DNA of 26,613 nt from Alteromonadaceae bacterium (GTDB taxonomy: Bacteria; Pseudomonadota; Gammaproteobacteria; Enterobacterales; Alteromonadaceae), in the NCBI GenBank assembly GCA_047614605.1, contig JBLHHD010000001.1:1-26613 (forward strand), given 5' to 3'. The position numbers and the translations under genes are program-made. Positions 1,893 through 26,398 of the stretch are shown here, piece by piece. The notes under the pieces are model-generated. The model did no database searches and was not told the origin of the DNA. It worked only from the letters and a program-made list of their open reading frames with translations. Position 1 is the stretch's first letter. Each line of letters begins with the position of its first letter.

Positions 1893-2735
1893 ATGACGAT
1901 CCCAAATCAAGCGCCTTTAACCTCGGGTAAATTTAAACGCCGGGTGTTGCAACACATCAATTATACCCTTGGCACCCACTCTGAGGAAGCCAGTAAAGAA
2001 GCTTGGTGGCGGGCGACCTGTTTAGCCGTTAACCTGCACCCCAGAGTGTTTATCTTTGGCGCCAAAGCGGCTCCGGGTTATTACCTGGCTAAAGAGATCA
2101 TTTATGCCATCAACAAAGTTGGCGAAAAACTCATTCCGGCAGCTGATGTGTCAGAGCAAATCTCTACCGCCGGTAAAGAAGCGTCGGGCACCGGTAATAT
2201 GAAGTTGGCACTGAATGGCGCCTTAACCATCGGCACCCTCGATGGCGCCAATATTGAAATGGCCGAAGCGGTGGGCGAAGATAACACCTTTATCTTTGGC
2301 AATACCGTTGATGCGGTTAAGGCTTTGGATAAACACGGTTATCAATCGAGTCATTACGACAAGCAAAACAGCGAAATTAAAGCCTGTCTCGACTGGCTGG
2401 ATACCAACTACTTTACTGTGGGCAGCCCCGGCGAATTGTCGGCGATTAAACGCTCTTTGCTTGATACAGGTGACCCTTACAAAGTATTGGCTGATTATGA
2501 AGCCTACAGCGAAGATCACAAAAAGATTGATGTGGCGTATAAAGATAAAAGTCGCTGGGCTAAAATGGCCATCATCAATACCGCCAAAATGGGCAAGTTC
2601 ACCTCTGATCGCGCCATAACGGACGATGTTAACAACATTTGGCACCTCAAACCTTTGCCTTGTAAAGTTCAAGCTCGACCTAAACCTAAGTCTAAACCTA
2701 AACCTAAACCTAAAGTAGAGCAGGAGAACCACTAA
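1893..2735 (+). pseudogene. glgP: Internally deleted glycogen/maltodextrin phosphorylase (GT35), 280 aa, reading frame intact
   Basis: N-terminal phosphorylase segment (...WWRATCLAV) fused directly to C-terminal-domain motifs [39 protein letters not shown] (PLP lysine), TLDGANIE and GKFTSDR. It lacks GNGGLGRL and KRxHEYKRQ; full-length enzymes are ~800+ aa. Confidence 0.85.
2679..2714 (+). repeat. Hexanucleotide microsatellite, 6 x (C/T)CTAA(A/G), encoding [12 protein letters not shown]
   Basis: cctaaa cctaag tctaaa cctaaa cctaaa cctaaa, read directly from the sequence. Confidence 0.95.
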
Positions 2736-4630
2736 TGATCAGCGAAAACGGCCAACTCAGCGATTTTGATCTGCATTTGTTGGGTGAAGGCAAACATGCC
2801 AAAGCCTATGACACACTCGGTGCTCATATGGTCGAAGTTAACGGCATAAAAGGCGGGGCCTTTGTGGTTTGGGCACCTAATGCCAGCGAAGTAGCGGTAG
2901 TGGCTGACTTTAACCACTGGCAAGCGGACCAACACTTGTTAACCAATCGAAATGGCATTTGGTCGATTTTTATTGCGGGTGTTCAGCCCGGTAATCATTA
3001 CAAATATGCGATCAAGGACAGTCACGGCAATGCATTACCTTTAAAAGCGGATCCTTATGGTCAAAGTGCGCAAAAACGTCCTGAAACGGCATCGATATTA
3101 TGCGAAACACCAGCACTTAACTGGCAAGATCAAGACTGGATGGGCAAACGTCAATTACGTAATGCCCGTGATGCGGCGATCAGTATCTACGAAGTGCATT
3201 TAGGCTCGTGGCAACGTACCGACGACAATCAGTTTATGAATTATCGTGATATTGCCGACCAACTGGTGCCTTACGTGCTGGCTATGGGCTTTACTCACCT
3301 GCAATTGATGCCCGTCAGCGAATTTCCGTTTGACGGCTCCTGGGGTTATCAGCCGGTGGGTTTGTTTGCCCCTAGTAGTCGTTTTGGCAGCGGTGAGGAT
3401 TTTCAGTATTTTGTTGATTGTTGTCATAAAGCTGACATAGGTTTACTGATAGACTGGGTGCCGGGACATTTTCCTAACGATGCCCATGGTTTGGCCCAGT
3501 TTGACGGTACTCATTTGTATGAACATGCCGACCCTAAGCAAGGCTTTCACCCCGATTGGAATACCCTGATTTACAATTATGGCCGCACAGAAGTGGCTAA
3601 CTTTTTAACCGCCAGCGCGATGATTTGGCTCGACCGTTACCATGTTGACGGTATTAGAGTCGACGCCGTGGCATCGATGTTATACCTCGATTACAGCCGC
3701 AAAGAGGGCGAATGGGTGCCTAACCATCTGGGCGGTAACGAAAACCTTGAAGCCGTGGCCTTTATTAAACAATTTAACGACACTTTGTATCGCGATCATC
3801 CGGGAGCCTTTAGTGTGGCCGAAGAATCTACCTCATGGCCGGGTGTTTGCCGACAAACCGGCGATGGCGGATTAGGGTTTGGCTATAAATGGAATATGGG
3901 CTGGATGAACGATACTTTGCAATATATGCAACGTGACGCCATTCACCGCCAACACCATCATCATGAGCTGAGTTTTGGTCTGGTTTACGCCTTTAGCGAG
4001 AATTTTATTCTCCCGTTAAGCCACGACGAAGTGGTACACGGTAAAGGGTCGTTACTGGCGAAAATGCCCGGTGACGAATGGCAACAATTCGCCAACTTAC
4101 GCGCTTATTACGGCTTTATGTGGGCACATCCGGGTAAAAAGCTGCTATTTATGGGCTGCGAATTTGCTCAGGGCAAAGAGTGGAACCATGATGTGGCACT
4201 TGACTGGTTTCATACCGAGCAACCCCTGCATCAGGGGGTACAGCAACTGGTGAAAGACTTAAACCAACTTTATCGCTCAACCCCCGCTTTGTACGAAAAA
4301 GACTGTGAAGCGGCAGGATTTGCGTGGATTGACGATGAAAATGCCCAACAATCGATGTTCAGCTTTATTCGTTATGGTAAAAACAGCGATAAACCCGTTG
4401 TAGTGGTGTGTAACTTCACTCCGCAAACCCATCAACTGTTGACCTTAGGCGTACCAGCACCGGGCTTTTACCGGGAGGCGTTTAATAGCGATGCGGCTAT
4501 TTATGGTGGCAGTAATCAGGGCAATATGGGGGGCGTTACTGCACAAAATGAAGCCTGTAATGGTCAACCCCACAGTTTGACCATTACAGTACCACCGCTG
4601 TCAACCAGTGTATTTGAGTTGACGGTATAA
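2735..4630 (+). CDS. glgB: 1,4-alpha-glucan branching enzyme (GH13), short form of 631 aa
   Basis: Catalytic motifs [14 protein letters not shown] and LSHDEVVH, plus WGYQP and YEVHLGSW. The start overlaps the previous stop (TAATG). Confidence 0.97.
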
Positions 4631-6822
4631 TGAATAATATGACTTCGAAGCCCTATCCACTGGGCGCAACTTACGACGGGCAGGGCACCAACTTTGCCTT
4701 GTTCTCGGCTAATGCCGACAAAGTTGAGCTGTGTTTGTTTGACGCCGATGGTGTTCAAGAGGTTCAGCGGATTGTTTTACCTCAATGCACGCATCAGGTT
4801 TGGCATGTTTACTTACCTGCGGTTAAACCGGGTAGTTTATATGGTTATCGGGTGCATGGCCCTTTTGAACCTCATCAGGGGCACCGTTTTAACCCGGCAA
4901 AATTGTTACTTGACCCTTATGCCCGGCAACTTCACGGTGAGCTAGTGCCCAGTGATGTTCATTTAGCTTATGACAAGCTGAGTTTACAACGAGATTTAAC
5001 CCTGGATTGTCGTGATAATGCGGCGTTTATGCCCAAGTGTGTGGTGATTGCGCCGCTGGCTAAAATCAGCGTTGATGACAAACCTCGTATTGCGCATACC
5101 GAGCGGATTATTTATGAATTACACGTCAAAGGTTACAGTCGTTTAAACAGCCAGCTGCCAGAGCCTTTACGAGGCACTTATAAAGGGCTTAGTGATGAGT
5201 CAGTACTGGATTATCTCACTGATTTAGGCATTACCAGTGTCGAATTATTACCGGTTCATGCCTTTGGTAACGAAACGTTTTTAGCCGAAAAAGACTTATC
5301 TAATTTCTGGGGTTATAACAGTCTGTCATTTTTTGCGCTGCATAATCGTTATGCCAGCGATAATTCAGTGATTGTTGCAGAGTTTCGCCAAATGGTGGCT
5401 GCTTTTCATCAGCGTAATATCGAAGTTATTTTGGATGTGGTCTTTAACCACACGGCAGAGGGTAATGAACTGGGGGCAACTTATAGCCTTAAAGGCATCG
5501 ATAATGCCAGTTACTACCGCTTAAACAGCAAAGACTCGCGTTTTTATGAAAATTATTCAGGTTGTGGCAATACCCTTAACGTTCAACATCCGCGTGTATT
5601 ACAACTGGTGATGGACAGTTTACGTTATTGGGTCGAGACCATTGGTGTTGATGGCTTTCGCTTTGATTTAGCCACTATAGTGGGTCGTGATAATGACGGT
5701 TTTGCCCCCGATGGGCATTTTTTCCACTGCGTCCGTCAGGACCCGGTATTGGCTGGGGTTAAGTTAATCGCTGAACCCTGGGATATCGGTCCTGATGGCT
5801 ACCAACTGGGCCGTTTTCCCAGCAATTGGCTCGAATGGAATGATCGTTTTAGAGATACCACCCGACGCTTTTGGCGGGGTGATAAAGGATTGTTGCCAGA
5901 ATTAGCCCGACGCTTACACGGCTCCAGTGATTTGTTCGAACAAAAAGCCGGACGACCTTGTTCGAGTGTTAATTTTGTCACCAGTCATGATGGTTTTACC
6001 CTGGCCGATTTGGTGAGTTTTGCCCAGCGGCATAACTACGCTAATGGCGAAGATAATGAAGATGGTCACAAGACGACCTTTAGCGCCAATCATGGTGTTG
6101 AAGGGCAAACCGACGACCCGACAATAATTCAATTGCGGGCACAGCAACAGCGTAATATGCTAGCAACCCTATTTTTGGCTCAGGGTACACCGATGCTGTT
6201 AGCGGGTGATGAATTTGGCAATTCTCAGGCTGGCAATAATAATGCCTATTGTCAGGATAATGAGATTAGCTGGCTACAATGGGATAAAAATACCCCTGAA
6301 CACGATGACTTGCATTCGTTTGTCCGCCGCTTAATCAGCTTACGTAAAGCGCACCCATTACTTAATCGCAATTATTATCAGCATGGCGATAAAAGCTCAC
6401 CGGTATTGGCCTGTCCAGATTTGAGTTGGTGCCATTACAGCGGTCGACAGATGGTTGATGATGACTGGCATAACAGCGATTTGCAGTGTTTGGCGATGTT
6501 ATTGGCTAATACTGCTGTGCCAGATCAAAAAGCTGTGCCATGTGAAAAAGCTGAGCCACAGCGCGATAGTTTGGCCCTGTTGTTGATTTTTAACGCCAGT
6601 ATTGACGAAGTTCGCTTTAAATTACCCGTATTTACCCACCAGCCATGTCGCTGGCAGTTATTGCTTGATACTTCGATGACGAGCGAAACGCTCGACTTTG
6701 CAGACAACGGTGACGATATACTCATTCCTGCGCTTTGCTCACTGGTACTTAGTGCCCAGGAGCCCAGCGGTACACAATCTATACATAAGAAACAAGAGAA
6801 GTATTCCCATGACGCTACTTAA
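4630..6822 (+). CDS. glgX: Glycogen debranching enzyme (isoamylase type, GH13)
   Basis: N-terminal PYPLGAT..G.NFALFS, then NFWGYN, GFRFDLA, IAEPWD, VTSHDGF and GNNNAYCQDNE. TAATG coupling to glgB. Confidence 0.97.
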   Translation: MNNMTSKPYPLGATYDGQGTNFALFSANADKVELCLFDADGVQEVQRIVLPQCTHQVWHVYLPAVKPGSLYGYRVHGPFEPHQGHRFNPAKLLLDPYARQLHGELVPSDVHLAYDKLSLQRDLTLDCRDNAAFMPKCVVIAPLAKISVDDKPRIAHTERIIYELHVKGYSRLNSQLPEPLRGTYKGLSDESVLDYLTDLGITSVELLPVHAFGNETFLAEKDLSNFWGYNSLSFFALHNRYASDNSVIVAEFRQMVAAFHQRNIEVILDVVFNHTAEGNELGATYSLKGIDNASYYRLNSKDSRFYENYSGCGNTLNVQHPRVLQLVMDSLRYWVETIGVDGFRFDLATIVGRDNDGFAPDGHFFHCVRQDPVLAGVKLIAEPWDIGPDGYQLGRFPSNWLEWNDRFRDTTRRFWRGDKGLLPELARRLHGSSDLFEQKAGRPCSSVNFVTSHDGFTLADLVSFAQRHNYANGEDNEDGHKTTFSANHGVEGQTDDPTIIQLRAQQQRNMLATLFLAQGTPMLLAGDEFGNSQAGNNNAYCQDNEISWLQWDKNTPEHDDLHSFVRRLISLRKAHPLLNRNYYQHGDKSSPVLACPDLSWCHYSGRQMVDDDWHNSDLQCLAMLLANTAVPDQKAVPCEKAEPQRDSLALLLIFNASIDEVRFKLPVFTHQPCRWQLLLDTSMTSETLDFADNGDDILIPALCSLVLSAQEPSGTQSIHKKQEKYSHDAT

Positions 6823-9001
6823 TCAGTTGGCCGCTTTGGTTGGCATTCAGGCCGGTTATACCGATGCCGCCGGACAATCGGTGCAAACCAGTGACAGATC
6901 CCGAGACGCGATATTAAGCGCCATGGGGTTTACCCTTGACGACGAGCAACAAACGCAGCAGGACATTATTCGTCTGCGCGATAGCCAGTGGCTTGAAGTG
7001 TTAGCACCAGTAAAAATCATTAAGGCCGAAGATGATCAATATAGCATCGACTTTACGGTTAACTTGGCCGATATGGATGTCTCCAGCGAGTTGATTCAAT
7101 GGCAAGTCACCACCGAAGACAACCAGCAACACAGCAGTCAGCAAAACTTGTCCGCACTCGAATTAGTGGGTCAAAAAACCATTGATGATCAGCAATACAA
7201 CCGCTATCGCCTGAATATGATGACCTTGGCGCAAGGTTATCATGACCTGAGTGTTAGCCTGGCAGGGCAAAAGTATCCGTGTCGTTTAATTGTCGCACCA
7301 CAGACCTGTTACGGCCCCAAGGATGCCGCTGATTTTAAAATGTGGGGATTGGCTGCGCAGCTTTATTCGTTGAAAAAAGAGGGTGGCTGGGGCATCGGTG
7401 ATTACGGCGATTTAAGCACTTTAGTGGACAAAGCCGCTTCTGTTGGCGCATCGGTGATTGGGCTTAACCCTTTACACCCTTTGTATCCGGGTAATCCGGC
7501 TCATCGCAGCCCGTATTCACCGACCAGCCGTTGCTTTTTGAATAGTCTGTATATTGATGTCACCAAGGTTGATAACTTTGACGACTGTAAAGCGGCGCAA
7601 AAAGTGGTTAACTCTGACGAGTTTAAAACTCGCCTGGCTGAGTTAGATAACGCTGAACTGATTGATTATGCCGCCACGGCCCAGTGCAAATATCAGGTGC
7701 TAGAATTGTTGTATGAGCATTTTCATCGTAACCAGGTTAAAAAAGACACCTCATTAGGTCAGGCTTTTGCTGATTTTAAAACCAAAATGAGCGACGATCT
7801 CTATACATTCGCCACTTTTGATGCGTTATACGAGCATTTTAGAAAGAAAGACTTTAATGCTTATAGCTGGACTAACTGGCCGTTGACTTATCATGATCCA
7901 AAAAGTGAAGCCGTGGCTAAATTTCAGCTGCGTAATAAGCGCAGAGTCGATTATTTTATGTATTTACAGTGGCTGGCTGACAGTCAGTTAGGCGCGGCGG
8001 CAGAGCAAGCGAAGCAAAGCAAGATGGCAATTGGTTTGTATCTTGATTTGGCCGTAGGTTGTGATGGTGGCGGTGCTGAGGTATGGGCAGATAAAGACGC
8101 TTATGTCTCCGGTGCTGCGGTAGGTGCGCCACCTGATCAGTTAAATTCAATGGGGCAAAACTGGGGGCTGACGCCGATAAACCCGGTGGCGCTTAAAGCC
8201 AAAGCGTATCTGCCGTTAATTAGTGCGCTTAGAAGCAACATGCGTTATGCCGGTGCATTGCGAATTGACCATGTATTTGGCCTGATGCGTCAATACTGGG
8301 TGGGTCCTGGACTGGCCGCAACCGAAGGGGCGTTTGTGACCTTTCCGCTGGATGATATTTTGCGTATTATTGCGCTCGAATCCCGCCGGGCCAGCTGTGT
8401 GGTTGTGGGTGAAGATCTTGGGACAACACCCGATGGATTTGGTGAGATCATGGCACAGTCTGGATTATTGTCTTACCGGGTATTGTATTTTGAACGCTGG
8501 CAGTCTGGTTTATTCCAGCGCCCAGAGAACTACCCAGAGCAATCAATGGTGACCGTATCGACGCATGATATGCCGACCTTGGTAGGCTGGTGGACTGGTA
8601 AAGATTTAGATTGGCGTGAACAGCTTAACTTGTATCCGCAGGTCGAAATGGCGCAACAAGAGCGGGATAATCGGGTAACGAGTCGCGAAATGTTGTTAGA
8701 TGCTCTGAGGGATGCGAATGTGTTAAGCACCGATCAGCAACCGTTGACCTCGCCACCACAGGCTAATCCGCAATTAACTCAGGCGGTACAGGCATTTTTA
8801 GCCAAATCGCCAGGGCGTATCCAATTAATTCCACTCGAAGATGCGATTGGTTTACAAGAACAGGTTAATATTCCGGGCACTATTGATGAGCACCCGAACT
8901 GGTTACAGCGTTTGCCACATACCATGGAAGAATTTTGGCAGAACGAAGGGTTAAACGACCTAATGGACGTAATGCAACGCGAACGCCCTTTAGGCGTTTA
9001 A
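6809..9001 (+). CDS. malQ: 4-alpha-glucanotransferase (amylomaltase, GH77), 730 aa
   Basis: Motifs SPYSPTSR, LYLDLAVG, LRIDH, GEDLG and STHD. The start is re-assigned to ATG 6809 (purine-rich AAGAGAAG upstream, short overlap with glgX) instead of 6698. Confidence 0.95.
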   Translation: MTLLNQLAALVGIQAGYTDAAGQSVQTSDRSRDAILSAMGFTLDDEQQTQQDIIRLRDSQWLEVLAPVKIIKAEDDQYSIDFTVNLADMDVSSELIQWQVTTEDNQQHSSQQNLSALELVGQKTIDDQQYNRYRLNMMTLAQGYHDLSVSLAGQKYPCRLIVAPQTCYGPKDAADFKMWGLAAQLYSLKKEGGWGIGDYGDLSTLVDKAASVGASVIGLNPLHPLYPGNPAHRSPYSPTSRCFLNSLYIDVTKVDNFDDCKAAQKVVNSDEFKTRLAELDNAELIDYAATAQCKYQVLELLYEHFHRNQVKKDTSLGQAFADFKTKMSDDLYTFATFDALYEHFRKKDFNAYSWTNWPLTYHDPKSEAVAKFQLRNKRRVDYFMYLQWLADSQLGAAAEQAKQSKMAIGLYLDLAVGCDGGGAEVWADKDAYVSGAAVGAPPDQLNSMGQNWGLTPINPVALKAKAYLPLISALRSNMRYAGALRIDHVFGLMRQYWVGPGLAATEGAFVTFPLDDILRIIALESRRASCVVVGEDLGTTPDGFGEIMAQSGLLSYRVLYFERWQSGLFQRPENYPEQSMVTVSTHDMPTLVGWWTGKDLDWREQLNLYPQVEMAQQERDNRVTSREMLLDALRDANVLSTDQQPLTSPPQANPQLTQAVQAFLAKSPGRIQLIPLEDAIGLQEQVNIPGTIDEHPNWLQRLPHTMEEFWQNEGLNDLMDVMQRERPLGV

Positions 9002-9013
9002 AAACCGTTGTTA

Positions 9014-9036
9014 TTGGTGCGCACATTGCGCACCAA
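9014..9036. repeat. Perfect 10-bp-stem hairpin between malQ and the amylase gene (REP-like)
   Basis: TTGGTGCGCA-CAT-TGCGCACCAA; no U tract follows. Confidence 0.65.
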
Positions 9037-9076
9037 ATCCCAAACCCCAAAAAACCTAATGGCAAACCAATTAACT

Positions 9077-10834
9077 ATGAAAAAACCTTATAAAATCCTT
9101 TCAACTATTGCTTTTACATCCGCTTTGGCACTTTCTTTGTCTGCCTGTACCATTACTTCAACTACGGTTGATGTTGCGGGAAAAAGCGGTTATCAGCCCG
9201 ATTACCTGACTCGTCCGATTCAGGATGATGTGTTTTACTTTGTCTTGCCTGATCGCTTTAATAACGGTGACAGCAGCAACGATTTAGGCTCAACCACCGA
9301 TGCTTTATCGCGTGGCGGGCTGGATAACACCGATAAAGGCATGTATCACGGGGGAGATATTCGCGGGCTGGAGCAAAAACTCGACTATATCAAGGATATG
9401 GGCGTGACGGCGATATGGTTAACGCCGATTTTGCGTAATCAGGCGGTACAGGGTGATGTGTCTGGTTATCATGGTTATTGGGTATTAGATTTCACCGAAA
9501 TTGACCCGCATCTGGGCAGTAATGCCGACCTAAAAAGCCTGATTGATAAAGCCCATAGTAAGGGATTAAAGGTGTTTTTTGACATTATCACCAATCATAC
9601 CGCTGATGTGATCAAATACACCGAATGTCATGGTCAGGACGGGGCAGGCTGGTCTACTGAGCAAAATCCGTGTTTATACAAATCGCTGGCACAAATGGCA
9701 GCGGGCGATAAATATACTACCGTGGTGCCAGAGGGTTCACAAAATGTCAAATCACCGGCCTGGTTAAATGATCCCAAGTATTATCACAATCAGGGAGATA
9801 CCACCTTTGAAGGTGAAAACTCGGTGTATGGCGACTTTTTTGGCCTTGATGACGTAAACACTGACGATCCCGAAGTGGTTAAAGGCATGACGGATATTTT
9901 CAATAACCTGGTCACTGAGTTTAAGCCGGATGGATTTAGGGTTGATACGGTAAAACACGTTAACATGGCATTTTGGCAGCAGTTTTCACCAGCGGTAGTA
10001 GCCCACGCTAAAGCGCAAGGTATCCCTAACTTCTTTATGTTCGGCGAAGTTTACGATGGTAATGCCGATGTTCTTAGCAGCTTCACTACCACTGGCAAAT
10101 TACAATCGGTGTTGGATTTTGGTTTTCAGGGGGCAATCTATCAAACATTGGTGGCAAAAGAGGGCACCAAACAGCTAAAAGCCTTATTTGACCGAGATAG
10201 TAAATATAACGACGAGGACAGTAACGCCAATGAGTTACTTAACTTTGTGGGTAATCACGATATGGGGCGATTTGGCTTTCATTTGAACGAAAAACACCCG
10301 CAAATGAGTAATATAGAAAAAACCCAACGCAGCAAACTCGCTCATGCCTTGATGTTTTTTGCCCGAGGAATACCGGTGATTTTTTATGGTGATGAGCAAG
10401 GATTTGTCGGTGATGGTGGCAATCACGATTCTCGTCAGGACATGATGCCCTCAAAAGTCGCCAGCTTTAATGATGATGACCTGTTAGGCACCAGTAAAAC
10501 CACTGCCGATGATAACTTTGATAAAAACCACCCGTTATATCAGGCATTTAAGCAATACGCAGCTATCTACCGTGATCATCATGGATTACGTTACGGTGAG
10601 CATCAAACCTTGTATGCTGGTGAGCAAGCCGGTATCTATACTTTTACCCGAACGGACGCGAACAGCGGTGAAAAGTACGTGATTGTGTTTAATACGGCGG
10701 ATAACAACCAGTCTGTCAGTTTGCCGAGCAAAACTGGCCGCTACCAGCAGATTTTTAGCGAAGGCAAAGCGACACTGGATGATAAACAACAAAAACTCAC
10801 CTTACCTGGGTTGAGTTTTGCGATTTATCAGTAA
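9077..10834 (+). CDS. GH13 alpha-amylase / cyclomaltodextrinase-like lipoprotein, 585 aa
   Basis: Lipoprotein signal MKKPYKIL...LSLSA-C24 from ATG 9077. GH13 motifs YFVLPDRF, YHGYW, GFRVDTVKH, FGEVYD, GNHDMGR and YGDEQG. Confidence 0.9.
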   Translation: MKKPYKILSTIAFTSALALSLSACTITSTTVDVAGKSGYQPDYLTRPIQDDVFYFVLPDRFNNGDSSNDLGSTTDALSRGGLDNTDKGMYHGGDIRGLEQKLDYIKDMGVTAIWLTPILRNQAVQGDVSGYHGYWVLDFTEIDPHLGSNADLKSLIDKAHSKGLKVFFDIITNHTADVIKYTECHGQDGAGWSTEQNPCLYKSLAQMAAGDKYTTVVPEGSQNVKSPAWLNDPKYYHNQGDTTFEGENSVYGDFFGLDDVNTDDPEVVKGMTDIFNNLVTEFKPDGFRVDTVKHVNMAFWQQFSPAVVAHAKAQGIPNFFMFGEVYDGNADVLSSFTTTGKLQSVLDFGFQGAIYQTLVAKEGTKQLKALFDRDSKYNDEDSNANELLNFVGNHDMGRFGFHLNEKHPQMSNIEKTQRSKLAHALMFFARGIPVIFYGDEQGFVGDGGNHDSRQDMMPSKVASFNDDDLLGTSKTTADDNFDKNHPLYQAFKQYAAIYRDHHGLRYGEHQTLYAGEQAGIYTFTRTDANSGEKYVIVFNTADNNQSVSLPSKTGRYQQIFSEGKATLDDKQQKLTLPGLSFAIYQ

Positions 10835-10850
10835 TATAGATTGACCTATT

Positions 10851-10999
10851 TTTTGTAGGAGCGGAAGCTTTGAGCCTCTGTGCCGTGAATTGTTCCATCT
10901 GCCGTGAATTATGCACAAGGTGCATCACCGCTTAAAATGGCATCATCCCATGAAATGGCTGCGCCATTTATCGCGGCACCCAGGCCGACTCCTACAAAA
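10851..10999. repeat. REPIN-like element (inverted GTAG-type REP pair) between convergent genes
   Basis: The ends TTTTGTAGGAG (10851-10861) and CTCCTACAAAA (10989-10999) are exact inverted repeats. Internal direct repeat TGCCGTGAATT at 10881 and 10900. A GTAG start is the hallmark of RAYT-associated REPs. Confidence 0.7.
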
Positions 11000-11001
11000 G
11001 C

Positions 11002-11364
11002 TTATTCCAATAAAAATCCCATCAGCGAAACATCCTCAGCATCGACCCACATAGTGCAGCTGTTGGTGCCAGTGATATAGACTTTTTTACCCCTCATTTG
11101 GGCGGCTAGCAAAAAGCTGTACTGTTGCTGACCCAGCTCGGTGCTCATATTTAATGCCCAGCGTTTTGAACCGCTTGGCAGACCGCTATAGCTGGCACAG
11201 CCAGGTGGCGAGATATGATTTTCAGTGTAAAAAAACATTAGGCTTTTGTCGGCTGCGGCAGCAAACCCGATGGTTTCGATTTGCACCAGACCATTGCCGG
11301 TACCCGCGAGGGCTGTTAAGGGGGTGAGTAACGATAAAATGGTGAGTAAAATTTTATTTTTCAT
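11002..11364 (-). CDS. Small secreted protein, 120 aa, resembling an AB5-toxin B subunit (StxB-like OB-fold; inference)
   Basis: Signal peptide MKNKILLTILSLLTPLTALA, two Cys in the mature part, and the segment QYSFLLAAQMRGKKVYITGTNSC. Confidence 0.75.
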   Translation of the reverse strand: MKNKILLTILSLLTPLTALAGTGNGLVQIETIGFAAAADKSLMFFYTENHISPPGCASYSGLPSGSKRWALNMSTELGQQQYSFLLAAQMRGKKVYITGTNSCTMWVDAEDVSLMGFLLE

Positions 11365-11429
11365 TGATGTAATCCATTAATATTGCTGATCTGCGGTTGT
11401 TGTTTGTTGCCGCTGATTGAAGAGGAGCT

Positions 11430-11438
11430 ATTCTAGCA
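11430..11438 (-). promoter_or_regulatory. Candidate extended -10 promoter (TGnTAGAAT) for the 120-aa gene
   Basis: The minus strand reads TGCTAGAAT about 65 nt upstream of the ATG; no good -35. Confidence 0.35.
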
Positions 11439-11768
11439 CTGATGGCGAAAGCTTTTCTCCCAAAGTTTACACAGAGCTGCAATCGCCAATAAACTTCGCG
11501 GCTTATTAACAAGCGCTAGACAAAAGCAGAATCAGCTAATAGAATGGCCGGGTAATTTGGGTATCAAAATGCCCATTTTCGGTCTAAAATTGATTGGTTT
11601 AAAGGGATTGAGTTTTTTGGGAAGAGGTTACTAATACACTTCACTCGTTATACACATCTTAAGCTTTATCAACTAGTACCATTTATAAGTCACTGTCAAT
11701 AGTGGCTATTGGTGTTTTGCCGATCATTGTTATTTGTTTATTCAACAGGTTTAAGGAAAGTGGTAAAT

Positions 11769-14700
11769 ATGAAAAAAAGATTAAGCTTAAAAGGCTTATG
11801 GGGCGGTTTTATACTGGCCTTGAGCGCTTTGCTCGCTACCCCGCTACAGGCGGAACAATGGATCCCCATCACCGTGGGCAAAGGTCTAATTTTCATCCCC
11901 CAAATTAATTTTCAGGCGAACAATGTTTCCCCCGGCCAATATACCTTATCCTGGAATGGGCAAAGTAATGCCAGCAGTTATAAAATCGAACGGCTGACAG
12001 CAGATGTCAATACCCCGGTTAATGCAGAGGAAGTTCAGACGCTGTGGCAACTGGTGGCTGAGGTCACCACAACTTCTTTAAGTCAGACTCATGATTTGAG
12101 CACCAATGATCTGGATGGGCATCAAAATTATCGCTTGTCCAAATGTCAGGCATCGGTATGTACTGAGCTAGATTCCCTTTATTATTACGTTGCTCAAGAT
12201 CAGCTGCAAAATGCTATCCCGCAAGACTTTACTTTAACCACGGCAACGACAACTACCAAAACAGCGCTGAACCGTCATGCTGATAGCAATGGTAACGGCA
12301 GCGATAATAGCAATAATCCTTATGCTTACGGTAAAGGTTACAGTTTTATCACTGGCCACGAAAACCCGGCAGGCCATTTGCCACCAGGACAAAACAAACC
12401 GAAGTTGTCGCAAACCAAAATCGTGTCAACCAATGCCGCTTCTGGTCCTTTGCTGGATAACGAAGTCTTGTTAACCTGGAAAGCGGTTAATCGCGCTCAT
12501 CACTATGTGGTTTCCAGAGTACCAGACAGGGGTGAGTCACCAACTTACGAGCGTCTGTATGGCGAAGGCCACAACTTATTTGCCAGTGATACCAGCTTCA
12601 GAATTCAGTTACAGGCAGGCACTTATGATTTTGTCGTTTATGCTTGTAGCCAGTTTGGTTATTGTAGTCGTCCGAGTATTGTTCGCAGCCGTACGGTGGA
12701 GATCATCCCGGATACCACCATTCAACCAAAAAATTTCACCGTTCCAGAGTTCGCCAGTCAAGGGGTTAGCTTTAAGCTTACCTGGCAAGCACCACAAGTG
12801 ACCGCCAATTTGCTTAAATATGAAGTGCTGGGTGAATTATCTGGTCTTATCGGCACTGTTTTGGTCGGCCAGCCACTGGAGCTTGAGCGTAATGTCGCTT
12901 CAGCACTGGCTGCGGGTCGTCAGTATTGTTATAAAGTTCGTGCTGTTTATAGTACTTATGCGGGTCAGTATGTTATTCCTGAATATCCCAAACCTCATTG
13001 TGTAAAGGTCGGTGGTGAGCCGGTTTTACCAGCCCCTGAGTTTCTTTCGTTAGTCGCGCAGATACCGCCTTCAGAACCTGATCCAGATTATCCAGAATCC
13101 AGAGTGCCTACGCTTTGGACCTCATTTTCTTTAACCTGGGCTGCGGTGTCGGGGGCTGATTATTATATGCTTGAACGTGAACTGGTGCCGGGCACTGGTG
13201 ACTGGTCAGCGGTTTATGTGGGTGAAGGGACTAATAAACGTCAATTCTTCAGTGAAGATCGTTTTGAAATGTATCGGGTTAGCGCCTGTAGAGCAGACCA
13301 TCAATGTGGTAATTATCGTCGTCTACATTTTGATTCCACAGCGGGGATCAGCGAGTATACCCTGCAAGAGTATAAAAAACCGGCTTGTTTGGTTGTTCCC
13401 TCAACCGTTGATGCGCAGGAAGATATTGTTGTTTCCTGGTGTGCACCACAACAAACCGGGGTAACCAGTTATCAGTTATTAGATGCTAGTGGGACAGTTA
13501 AAGCGACGGGTTCGCCGACTACATTCTCACGAAGCATCCAAAACCTGGTTCAGTCATCTCAACCGGGTCTGGATTATGGCGCACCTTATTGCTACAGCGT
13601 AAAAGCTTATTTTAGCGGTGATGCAACAGGCTACGAACATACCCAGCAGTGTGGTCAGGTTAAGCAACGAGCGGCGACACCGACGATTAACCCTAATGGT
13701 GGCACAATTCTCAGTAATGAGACTATCAGTTTAGCTTCACCGGATAGTGATGCGTCGTTTTTCTATGGCGTGATTTCTCCTGGCGTAAGCTGCGATACAC
13801 TGACTACCACCCAATGGAAAAACTACAATAGCACAACGGGTATTTCGTTAAACAATGCCAGTAAAGTCTGTGCTAAAGCCAGCAAAGTTAATTATGCCCA
13901 GAGCCTTGTTGCCAGTGCCGAGTTTACTATCGCTCCAGCACCTGTGACCAGCATTGCTGATGCAACAGTTACCACGTTAACACGCCCTGGGGCTACAGAT
14001 ATTGTCGGACAACTGACGGGCAGCGGTGCAATCAGTGGCGGCAGTGTTAATTACGATATTCCTATTCAAGTGCCTCCCGGACGTCAGGGTATGGAGCCGT
14101 TATTGTCATTTAGCTATAACAGCGGTGCTGGTAATGGTCAGCTGGGTAAAGGTTGGTCACTGGCCGGTCAAGAGGCTGTTTCACGTTGTAGTGCCAACTG
14201 GACACAAGATGGTACCGTCGACAAGGTTAATTTATCCAATGATGATTTATTATGCCTTAACGGTCAAAAGCTCGTGGTTGTATTAGGTAGTTATGGGGCG
14301 CTTTCATCTGAATACCGGACCCTGCAAGACAGTTTTAGCAAAATCGTATTAAAAGGTGCTGCGTATTCATCTACATCTTCGTATTTTGAAGTGACCAGTA
14401 AAAGTGGTCAGGTCAGCTATTACGGTAATACTACCAACAGCGTGTTTAAAGCCAAAGGTTCTACGGTGCCGATGAGCTGGTCCATTAACAAGGTTTATGA
14501 TAATGGCGTAACGCAAAACAACATCACCTATAAGTACAGCAATGCCAACGGTGAGCAGCTGTTGACGGATATTTATTATACCGGCCAGGTAGATGTCGAT
14601 GGCGATCGCCGGGTGCAGTTTACTTATGAAGACAGAGCAGATATTAGCTTTGGTTATATTGCATTAGGTTCAACCAAATCAACCCAGCGTTTGGCTGATG

Positions 14701-17700
14701 TGACTACTTATGTTGGTACTGAAAAAGTCTTTAACTATGACCTGTTATATCACGCCGTTAGTGGTGCGCTCAGCGATCATTCTCGGCTTGCCTCGGTACG
14801 CCAGTGTGGTTATGAAGTTGATGTAGCAAAGTGTCTACCGAAAAAGGAATTTACTTACAGTGGTGACTATCTGAGGTTTGATACGGTCGCTTCGGCCAAT
14901 GCCACCTTTAATACCGTCTATCACGGTGCCAACCCGTGGAATATTGCTACCCAGTTAACCGGTGATTTTAACAATGACGGGGTGCTCGATTACGTTCGTT
15001 ACGATCAAGTTCATTTTATGAGCTTTGATAATAATCAATATGCGATTGAATCTGTTTTGCCTATTCCTTTTGGCGTAGTAGCAGGGGGTGATCCTTATGA
15101 AGCCTTAAAGCTGGGGCAACTCGACTTTAACGGTGATGGCTTACTTGACTTGATAGGTGTTGACGCGAATGGGTTATCAATTGCCAAATTAGTCAAAACA
15201 GGTAACTCTTATTCTTTTGATTCACAAGCTTTGGGCATTCCGATGGTGTGCTCTGTTGAAATGCAATTAATTGATACCTATTTGGGACAGGTGGTCAGTG
15301 GACTGGATTATAAGCACCGGGGCGCTTGTAAAGCCGAAGTAATTCCTGATGGCAGTGGTGGTCACTATGTGTTCCATCGTTCGTCATTTTCACCCTTGTA
15401 TTTGTCACGTATACACCCGGATTGTAGCAATGGCATCTGTAGTACGCCGACACTGATCCCAGGTGTAGATGATGGCCCGTCACTGATAACTACTTATCAT
15501 GAAAAGCCAACCAGTCATCAGTTCTTTGATTTTGACGGTGATGGTGATCCAGATATCGTTAAACTTGAAGAAGTCAGTCAGGATGCCAATGCGGCTGTAC
15601 GACTGGTGTGGTTTAGAAATGATGAAAGTGGTCATGGCTCGGCGGCAACTAATACCTTTACCAAAGTCACCCAGTCAATTTCGACCCTGACTAAAACCTA
15701 TGCGATGGCCAGCGGTGGTAATCACTGGATGGACGCCAATGGCGATGGCTTGCGAGACCTGCTGGTCAACAGTGGTAACTGGTATATTTTGATCAATAAA
15801 GGTGGCACGTTAGCCGCACCGGTAAACACTCAAATTGGTGCTTTTAAACGCTCTAATGTTTGTGCGATGAACTGTAATCACAGTGGTCCTGCACACACCA
15901 CTCATGCTTCTGTCCGGGCCGTTGATTATAACGGTGATGGCCTTGAAGATTTCATGTTTTTGGATCGTGACGTTAGAGTCAGAGATTGTTATGAAGACAG
16001 AACCCGCTCCCGCTGTAAAGAAGGTAATGGTAGTGAATCACCGGCAGTGGCTGATTTTGTGATCTCGCCTTTGGCCTGGGGCAAGTTTTCTGTTTATCTT
16101 GCTGATGTCGATAGTGCCGGTAATGTTACGTTTACTTATCAAAGTACAGCACTTGAAGGTTCAATGGATAACTTCCATTCGGTCGATATCAATAGTGACG
16201 GTCATATGGACTTTATGGGCACCATTCGTGAATATGACGGATCAATTGCCGATAACTTGCAGACGCTGCCTACTGAAACCTTCTTTTATTTGGGCAAAAG
16301 TGACAGTACTGGGATTGCGCCTGACTTGTTGACTAAGGTGAATGACGAAAGCAACTATCAGGTCACGGGTTTTGGTCAACAAGATAGCTTTAAATACTTG
16401 TCATTTGGCCAACATAAAACGGCTGTAAGCGGTTCAGCAACCGTAGATAACAGTGATTTAAGTGGCAAGTATTATTACCGTATACCGTCTACTCAAACTG
16501 TTGCTGTGCAACATGACAGTAAAAATGCCAATAATGGCACTAATACGATCCGCTATCAGTATGGTGATCCCATTTATCATCAGGCTGGTCTGGGTTTCAT
16601 TGGCTTTGAAACCATCAAAGAAATTGATGTGGCTCAGGGCACTACCAGCGAAGTTCATTATCTGCTGGACTATCCATTAAACGGTAAAATTAGCCGCGAA
16701 GAAATACGCGAAACTGCTGATGACAGCCTGTTGCAAAGTCAAACGTTTAATTGGTGTGATGCGAGCACTTCACAGTGCGACGGTGTTAATGCAGGGACCT
16801 ACTTTGGCTATCTCAATGATAGCCTGGTTAGCAGTTTTGATCCCGCCGGTAATGCACTGAAAACCGAACAGGTCACTTATAACAGTTACGATGATTACGG
16901 CAATGTGACTCAACAAACCTCAGTGGTCAGTGATATTAGTACCACTCATACCACAGTGGCTGACAATATTTATATAGCTGGGGATGAAAGTAGCTGGTGG
17001 GTTGATAAAATTGATTATAGCGAAATTACCAAGTCGGTTAGCTACACCACTAATCATGGTATTGTTGCCGGCACCAATGGCAATAAAACCCAGCGTCGAA
17101 CACTGACGTACAAGGCGGGTAATCAACGCCAGGTTGCGACAGAGACCATTAGCGGTAGTGATACTTTAATCAAATCGGTCACCACTTATAACACCTATGA
17201 CAGCTACGGTAATGTAACCAAGGTAACCCATGCTGGTGTTGCTGATAGTGGGGTGAGTTATACCGGGGTTCAGGTAGCCGGGATCACCGAATACGATTAT
17301 GCCACCAGTAGTGGTTATTTTGCTGACTCAGAAAAAAACGGGCTGTGGACAGCTAATGCGGTGACGCGCACCTGGGATAAGCGCTTTGGTGGGGTACTTA
17401 CTGAAACTAATCTTAATGGTCTGTCATTAACCAATAAATATGACTGGTTTGGCCGATTAATCCAGGTTGACAGTAATACTTCACCGGTACAAGATATTAT
17501 CTTTAACTGGGGTGGTGATGGTGTCTTTACCACAACTACTGTGCAGGATGGGGCAGCGACAACGGTTGAAGCCTTTAACCGTAATGGTCAGCTAGTTAAT
17601 CGCAGCGTTCAGGCTTTTGCCAAAAACCCGACGGCTGAGCAAACGTCAATCGAGACATTTACTTATGATGCGCTGGATAGGTTGATTCAACAAATTGCTC

Positions 17701-25543: not shown

Positions 25544-26398
25544 ATGAAAACAAGTAAGACCTGGTGGGGTCAAAAATTTATCACTGCACTGACAGAGTTT
25601 ACCGAAGAAGGCCGTTTAACCAGAGGCCGTGCTTATCGTACTGACAATCGCGTGAAGCAGTGGGATATCTCGGGCAGTAAGATAACCGCTAAAATCCGGG
25701 GCAATAAAAACCCCTATTTTGGCGTTTACAAAGAACCCACGTATACCACCACTTTGGCGTTGATACCGATATCGACAAAGCAATGGAACAAATTGTTATT
25801 GGCTATTGGCGAAAATGCCGGGGCCATTTGCAAGTTGATGAACAATGAAATGCCCGATGATATTGAGCAACCCTTTGATACTGTCGGTTTGCATTTGTTG
25901 CCGCTCAGCAATAAGGACTTTACGGTTAACTGTTCATGCCCAGATTATGCAGTCCCGTGCAAACATATCGCCGGGGTCTTTTATCGTTTGGCAGAGCAGT
26001 TGGATCACGATCCGTTGTTGCTTTTTCAGTTACGTGGACTGTCTCACCAGCAACTTCATCAACAATTGGCAAAGTCAGCATTAGGCGAGGCGTTATTGTT
26101 ATCACTAAGTGCCAGTGACACCATGCCTGAGCCGCTAGAAAGTTATTATACGCGCCCCAAAGAACTGACGATTAAACCGCCAATGGATGTCAAAAGCTTT
26201 TGGCTGGGTGAAACGCCGTTGTTACCTTTAAAATTACCCCAACGTGCAATCGAACCATCTGCTGGCGCGACAATCTCAGCATTGTTAATCAAAAAAGGCG
26301 GAGAATTTCCACCGTTTTGGGATCGCGATAATTCATTTATCGAAGCGATGGAAGGTTATTATGCAGCCTTGCGCAAGAATGGTCAGAAGTTGTTGTAA
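25544..26398 (+). CDS. SWIM zinc-finger protein, 284 aa
   Basis: CSCPDYAVPCKH (CxCxnCxH), N-terminal TWWG.KF...L...GRL.RGR.Y, and a GGAG RBS. Starts 4 nt after the helicase stop. Confidence 0.92.
   Translation: MKTSKTWWGQKFITALTEFTEEGRLTRGRAYRTDNRVKQWDISGSKITAKIRGNKNPYFGVYKEPTYTTTLALIPISTKQWNKLLLAIGENAGAICKLMNNEMPDDIEQPFDTVGLHLLPLSNKDFTVNCSCPDYAVPCKHIAGVFYRLAEQLDHDPLLLFQLRGLSHQQLHQQLAKSALGEALLLSLSASDTMPEPLESYYTRPKELTIKPPMDVKSFWLGETPLLPLKLPQRAIEPSAGATISALLIKKGGEFPPFWDRDNSFIEAMEGYYAALRKNGQKLL

Follow-up and report, generated by a model that had tools for sequence, protein, structure and literature searches.

A 280-codon remnant of a MalP-type phosphorylase gene, probably a recent product of decay, at the head of a glycogen operon in a sea-ice bacterium

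Can an operon be headed by a gene that has lost most of its codons and nevertheless reads without a break from its start codon to the next gene, and if so, is the open frame kept by selection or has it simply not yet been broken? This question is raised by a short open reading frame, hereafter the stub, that carries both ends of an alpha-glucan phosphorylase and precedes glgB in a window of 26,613 nucleotides. The window is the entire contig C1 of a metagenome-assembled genome (G000; 3.29 Mb, 530 contigs, 78.8% complete) of an Alteromonadaceae bacterium, and its DNA is present in sea-ice metagenome runs.

The operon and its shortened first gene

Downstream of the stub stand four intact genes, namely glgB, glgX, malQ and an alpha-amylase-family gene. 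The operon is tightly packed, with a TAATG overlap at both the stub/glgB and the glgB/glgX joins and a longer overlap at glgX/malQ. Its features are as follows.

1786-1826 (1786-1797 and 1815-1826), palindromic, no strand: two boxes CATACGTATGCA, spaced by 29 nt and lying 107 and 78 nt before the start codon (repeat search)
1893-2735, forward strand: open reading frame of 280 codons, probable remnant of a MalP-type alpha-glucan phosphorylase gene (ORF, Pfam, structure and ortholog alignment, NCBIfam)
2735-4630, forward strand: glgB, short form, 631 aa, intact (NF003811, 994 bits against a cut-off of 741)
4630-6822, forward strand: glgX debranching enzyme gene, 730 aa, whose start overlaps the glgB stop as TAATG (TIGR02100, 984 bits)
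6809-9001, forward strand: malQ, 4-alpha-glucanotransferase, with a probable ATG at 6809 that overlaps the end of glgX (Pfam/NCBIfam)
9008-10834, forward strand: alpha-amylase-family gene, 608 aa, the last gene of the cluster (Pfam/NCBIfam)

Four genomes of the same genus (G001, G003, G004 and G005) carry an intact phosphorylase of 824-828 aa at this locus, followed by glgB-glgX-malQ in the same order as in the window; at 280 aa, the stub is by comparison much too short, as would be expected of a pseudogene. Moreover, a pair of boxes with the core CATACGTATG and a spacing of 29-30 nt lies ~80-110 nt upstream of the phosphorylase start in all four (box positions L016 1526/1555, L017 1416/1446, L018 10519/10549 and L019 1059/1088). 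This pair is probably the operator of the glycogen/maltodextrin operon. Since the boxes upstream of the stub are conserved in the four relatives, glgB, glgX and malQ probably depend on transcription through the stub.

The stub is clearly homologous to MalP and glycogen phosphorylase (GT35, PF00343). It matches Pfam PF00343 in two stretches (E = 2.7e-77, 261 bits) and the MalP structures of E. coli (1e4o) and Klebsiella (7tm7) in the PDB with E = 7e-67 and ~65% identity in the long stretch. In the alignment with these solved structures, stub residues 50-83 correspond to MalP 574-607 and residues 76-253 to MalP 626-803. The full-length family models are reached only in part, with 257 bits against a cut-off of 552.9 for TIGR02093 and 273.6 bits against 1273 for NF011561 (MalP), and the stub covers only positions ~481-514 and 537-713 of the 713 in the profile. 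As it falls below these NCBIfam full-length cut-offs, the stub is not an enzyme of the GT35 family.

The missing parts were sized by protein alignment with the four intact same-genus orthologs, combined with codon-level inspection. This alignment bears out the proposal of an earlier, sequence-only reading of the window, according to which a mini phosphorylase had arisen by two in-frame deletions and still heads glgB-glgX-malQ. The parts of the stub are listed below.

1893-2033, forward strand: retained N-terminus, codons 1-47, first helix region, 80-83% identical to the orthologs
2031-2036, forward strand: junction of deletion 1, AAC/CTG, where 536 codons (1608 nt) are missing (ortholog and codon alignment; a Logan contig runs across)
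2124-2133, forward strand: junction of deletion 2, with the surviving repeat copy GAAAAACTCA, where 26 codons (78 nt) are missing (codon inspection; the same Logan contig runs across)
2178-2204, forward strand: EASGTGNMK motif (residues 96-104), intact, with the codon of the PLP-binding lysine K104 at 2202-2204

The site of deletion 1 at ~2030-2036 and its in-frame nature had been predicted correctly; its size had been put at roughly 550 aa and is in fact 536 codons. The sequence across the join reads GCC GTT AAC / CTG CAC CCC, in which the microhomology amounts to AAC at most. Deletion 2, for which a loss of about 25 residues at 2124-2129 through a repeat had been suggested, is found at that place and has a repeat-mediated origin, with a size of 26 codons. 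In the relatives it is flanked by ~10-nt direct repeats GAAAAAATCA (GAA AAA ATC A), which encode (G/A)EKI in the same phase and support a slippage-type event. Because the repeats encode the same peptide in the same phase, deletion 2 was necessarily in frame.

Like intact members of the family, the stub keeps EASGTGNMK with its PLP lysine and lies at a locus syntenic with that of the intact same-genus orthologs. It differs from them in that only 259 of ~825 ancestral codons are left and that the glucan-binding loop GNGGLGRL, the TNHT region, the phosphate site KRxHEYKRQ and a core strand-helix unit (26 aa) are gone. The three motifs, which are present in the orthologs (GNGGLGRL and TNHT at 123 and 364 in G001), all lie inside deletion 1. 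Lacking them, the stub cannot be an active phosphorylase. Both the intact PLP motif with its lysine at 2202-2204 and the loss of the glucan and phosphate motifs, and of catalytic capacity with them, thus stand as first described.

A complete phosphorylase of 833 aa is encoded elsewhere in the same genome, on contig C121. It has all motifs (GNGGLGRL and TNHT at 140 and 381), scores 1210 bits with TIGR02093 and belongs to a cluster of the order glgX (cut by the contig start)-glgP-glgC-pgm (L021 2-6000). The sequence-only reading had proposed to look for a second intact phosphorylase, and this glgP answers it. The stub as query retrieved no MalP-type copy in G002, G010, G024 and G029, which have the GlgP-type copy, some of these genomes being incomplete. 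A chimera of the two paralogues was considered and rejected, as both retained parts of the stub find their best match in the MalP-type ortholog of G001 (80% and ~83%) and the C121 paralogue reaches only 45%.

The architecture appears confined to one lineage. The search for the same stub elsewhere, which the sequence-only reading had also proposed, gave no second case in 5.8 billion clustered proteins, JGI metagenome contigs or GTDB species genomes: a length-limited protein search yielded only contig-end fragments covering ~75% of the stub, an exact look-up of the stub protein returned no other holder, and neither of the two junctions, written as degenerate DNA patterns, was matched in the JGI contigs or the GTDB genomes. 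A 276-aa candidate in G040, which looked like a second mini-phosphorylase, is merely cut by the end of its contig.

The junctions in an independent assembly

A stub of this kind could arise outside the cell, if the deletions were artefacts of assembly or library preparation and the organism had an intact gene. The genome is a metagenome bin of 530 contigs, the one contig across both junctions comes from the probable source run, and the samples also contain a related population whose gene is intact and which leaves a loose end (GAAGTCATTTTTGAGCGG...). An independent assembly is available from Logan, built on 31-letter words. For run X1, probably the source, it yields a contig of 946 nt that covers 1930-2875 and crosses both junctions with 0 differences and 0 gaps, so that a second assembler follows an identical path; its word depth of 8.3 resembles that of the flanking contigs (9.75 and 7.28). 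As repeats approaching the k-mer length are absent from both junctions, the words that cross them have to come from actual reads. The only contigs that run on from 2033 into the missing part (GAAGTCATTTTTGAGCGG..., reading EVIFER) differ at 3 of 42 positions, which assigns them to the other population, and the stop loss and radical replacements described below fit a truly inactivated gene. In runs X2-X4, which come from three further ice samples, the strain is present at 2-5x, and none of these runs bridges junction 1; an X3 unitig (2119-2269) extends only ~10 nt to the left of junction 2, below the 31-letter requirement, and an X2 contig (2567-2876) spans the join between the tail and glgB. 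The deletions are thus real, their junctions being confirmed in one sample, and an assembly artefact, which the sequence-only reading had named as its own possible undoing, is unlikely; we give an intact gene hidden by such an artefact a very low probability.

Variation was also seen around the stub. Over window positions 1992-2033, runs X1, X3 and X4 contain the related population with the intact phosphorylase gene (3 differences in 42 nt) at similar or higher depth. Within the remnant itself, an A/G polymorphism at 1929 (stub Lys13 to Glu) is present at about half the depth in X1 and also occurs in X2, and a synonymous T/G at 2606 is found in X2; these two sites represent within-population variation.

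Relaxed constraint, stop loss and the boundary with glgB

If the stub no longer serves as an enzyme, its remaining codons may be expected to show it. Among the 207 retained C-terminal positions compared, 107 are identical to all orthologs, and eight unique replacements fall at positions invariant in 11 intact family orthologs. One of the eight, A77G, is the junction residue, and the other seven (E126A, I132T, Y156D, D172N, P176V, A208D and Y245D) are mostly radical. Each intact ortholog has 0-3 such replacements, mostly conservative (I/V, Y/F).

Unique changes were also counted, restricted to codons for which every other sequence has one and the same amino acid. On the window branch, the stub has 14 nonsynonymous and 28 synonymous changes, compared to 4 and 35 for the intact gene of G001 in the same columns (Fisher p = 0.016), that is, a nonsynonymous/synonymous count ~4 times that of its intact sister. 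Compared with its own neighbours on the same branch, the stub does not stand out significantly (14/28 vs 78/214, p = 0.36), because all four genes evolve somewhat faster in the window lineage. Of these four operon genes, it is the phosphorylase that is under the strongest constraint in G001 and under the weakest in the window. In relative-rate tests, the stub lineage shows 2.0-2.7 times the unique changes of G001, as against 1.0-1.8 times for the neighbours, a difference that alone is not significant. Taken together, these counts argue moderately for relaxed constraint on the remaining stub codons.

An AlphaFold2 model of the stub, built on a 74-sequence alignment, has a mean pLDDT of 72, with residues 1-28 and the PLP loop (89-101) below 50. 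It contains only vestiges of the beta-sheet, and residues 130-230 are confidently helical. The model would fit an incomplete Rossmann-like domain and is not decisive.

Near its 3' end the stub departs from its orthologs in another way, as shown by the following features.

2670-2672, forward strand: CAA (Gln260), aligned to the TAA stop of the orthologs, followed by a 21-codon read-through (3'-end alignment, gappy here)
2678-2714, forward strand: (ACCTAA)x6.2 microsatellite in the old spacer, now translated (repeat analysis; the X2 contig 2567-2876 runs across)
2722-2726, forward strand: AGGAG, Shine-Dalgarno sequence for glgB, 8 nt before the ATG at 2735 (read directly)

The orthologs of G001, G004 and G005 end in TAA, and it is probable, from an alignment that is gappy at this place, that the ancestral TAA mutated to CAA in the stub. 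With the ancestral stop now CAA, the tail of the stub would be the old spacer in translated form. The frame ends, as would be expected of a leader, in an overlap with the glgB start (TAATG, 2733-2737), which agrees with the earlier description of a stop overlapping that start (TAA 2733-2735, ATG 2735-2737). The glgB start in the window is the homologous ATG of G001, where a 43-nt untranslated spacer precedes it. Read from the sequence, the TAATG overlap at the stub/glgB join appears as a by-product of the stop loss, being simply the next in-frame stop.

The summed word depth of the microsatellite region (2659-2719) is 4,000-14,500 across the four ice runs, with ~8 in its flanks; the ACCTAA hexamer repeat is very abundant in other organisms of the ice samples. 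As for glgB itself, its product is short in the window (631 aa) and in G001 (648 aa) and has an N-terminus ~100 residues longer in G003, G004 and G005 (726-731 aa; L017 4018-6213, L018 5762-7957 and L019 3639-5819). As GlgB differs in length between genomes at this locus, the border between malP and glgB has changed repeatedly within the genus.

An open frame by chance, by selection or for a new role

The sequence-only reading concluded that the frame is being preserved, either for the sake of the downstream genes or for a new function. No stop or frameshift interrupts the 280 codons of the stub, so that the usual mark of a pseudogene, a disrupted frame, is missing. We asked how surprising this is. 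About 11 of the 14 nonsynonymous stub changes exceed a G001-like background, and a rough estimate would put the neutral substitutions since inactivation at ~0.02-0.03 per site. With 4.3% of single-base changes in the stub creating a stop, 840 nt would remain free of stops with a probability of 0.34-0.48. The chance of being in frame is 1 in 3 for deletion 1 and between 1 in 3 and nearly certain, owing to the in-phase repeats, for deletion 2. The probability of an open frame without selection is then, as a rough estimate, ~4-13% (0.04-0.13), which is unremarkable for a feature that was picked because it is open. Moreover, the frame is kept in one lineage only and not across independent ones. 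The claim that the frame is being preserved is thus not supported as it was worded, given a deletion 2 that is in frame by its repeats, the short time and this 4-13% chance.

We consider it probable that the stub is what remains of the MalP-type phosphorylase gene that headed the operon: a genuine remnant, specific to this lineage and fairly recent, which in functional terms is a pseudogene. Such decay of a gene is nothing out of the ordinary, the frame having stayed open by accident or under weak filtering, and it does not amount to a new type of protein. Against a remnant stand the nonsynonymous/synonymous count, which is not significantly above that of the neighbours, the confirmation of the junctions in one sample only, and the frame itself, open over 280 codons despite three separate lesions.

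The last of these points can be turned into a different account, in which the dead enzyme is maintained as an open frame by selection: its translation would shield the leader from Rho-dependent termination and deliver ribosomes to glgB, so that only in-frame, stop-free variants survive. After both deletions and the stop-loss read-through, translation still ends precisely at the glgB ATG, while frameshifted versions of the stub would stop at 2090-2200 and leave >535 nt untranslated before glgB. In addition, the operon leaves little room between its genes (TAATG at glgB/glgX, an overlap at glgX/malQ), the conserved operator-like boxes imply that glgB-glgX-malQ most likely rely on the promoter before the stub, and amino-acid constraint has relaxed while the frame has stayed open. 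Against this, the chance of an open frame is not small (~0.04-0.13), deletion 2 is in frame by construction, glgB has a strong AGGAG of its own 8 nt upstream and does not need coupling for initiation, and G001 does with a 43-nt untranslated spacer between the two genes; the pattern, seen in a single lineage, is without replication. Selection against polarity on the downstream genes is plausible as such, and we regard its having kept this particular frame open as rather unlikely. The same doubt applies to the stronger wording that decay was filtered in such a way that only non-polar lesions survived and the dead phosphorylase became a translated spacer shielding the glgB-glgX-malQ message from Rho. 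If true, the stub would be a natural counterpart of the geneticist's non-polar deletion. Far less credible is a new non-catalytic role for the stub, say as a small protein that binds PLP or associates with glucan enzymes. The PLP-lysine motif, the 107 of 207 C-terminal positions identical to all orthologs and the confident helical part of the AlphaFold2 model (residues 130-230) could be read in its favour. This second branch of the earlier proposal is argued against by the radical replacements at family-invariant positions, including two of Tyr to Asp, by a PLP loop with pLDDT below 50 and 28 N-terminal residues that are disordered in the model, and by the failure to find a second holder among 5.8 billion clustered proteins, JGI metagenome contigs and GTDB species genomes. 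The C-terminal helices of GT-B enzymes normally pack on the N-terminal domain, and the domain on which the retained helices would pack is gone; the tail, for its part, is translated spacer.

For the remnant that we favour, the following course of events may be proposed. In the genus, a MalP-type phosphorylase gene normally heads a malP-glgB-glgX-malQ-amylase operon. A large deletion with almost no homology at its ends removed 536 codons, comprising the whole core of the N-terminal domain and half of the C-terminal domain with the glucan and phosphate sites, and a slippage-type deletion between the in-phase EKI repeats took 26 codons including a core strand. The stop would then have mutated to CAA, so that translation runs through the old spacer to the TAA at the glgB start; we infer this order of events from the present arrangement. 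The product probably does not fold stably, and the stub is presumably neutral. Its 5' end, with operator boxes, promoter region and start, would have been retained because three intact downstream genes are presumably still transcribed through it. The loss of the MalP-type gene was tolerated because a complete phosphorylase exists in the glgX-glgP-glgC-pgm cluster, and the open frame is accounted for by chance, by the in-phase repeats around deletion 2 and by how recently the gene was inactivated. Polar (frameshifting) alleles may in addition have been filtered out.

The stub resembles deletion-formed bacterial pseudogenes in operons in being truncated and lineage-specific, with relaxed constraint, a lost stop and a paralogue as backup. 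Most recognised pseudogenes carry frameshifts or stops, whereas here the frame is open from the original start to the next gene, and gene callers report a normal 280-aa protein. It likewise recalls engineered non-polar deletions, which are made in frame because downstream expression is then undisturbed: an internal in-frame deletion affects the first gene of an operon and leaves its start and end intact. It differs from these in being a natural allele of an uncultured sea-ice bacterium, in which selection for non-polarity could be no more than supposed. A literature search on natural in-frame pseudogenes and polarity returned nothing pertinent.

These findings call for caution in annotation, since gene callers and family names will label the 280-aa stub as a "glycogen/starch/alpha-glucan phosphorylase", which it cannot be, and the metabolism of this sea-ice bacterium should be reconstructed from the complete second glgP. 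The stub offers a tidy natural example of a repeat-mediated in-frame deletion and a stop loss in the first gene of an operon. Many such cases, if collected, could test whether the decay of pseudogenes is biased by operon position toward non-polar lesions, which a single case cannot do.

Some features of the surrounding DNA may be added. Upstream of the operon, the neighbour in the window differs from that in G001; a 424-aa open reading frame at 133-1407 on the reverse strand, divergent from the operon, has only a sub-threshold match to the Trep_Strep membrane-protein family and no NCBIfam match. Further downstream, the stop of a 2871-aa open reading frame (11709-20324) is overlapped by a 221-aa frame (20324-20989) with no Pfam match. 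Finally, at 22453-26398, a gene for an SNF2-family helicase with DUF3670 (1028 aa) is followed by one for a SWIM zinc-finger protein (284 aa), and these two form a recurrent gene pair.
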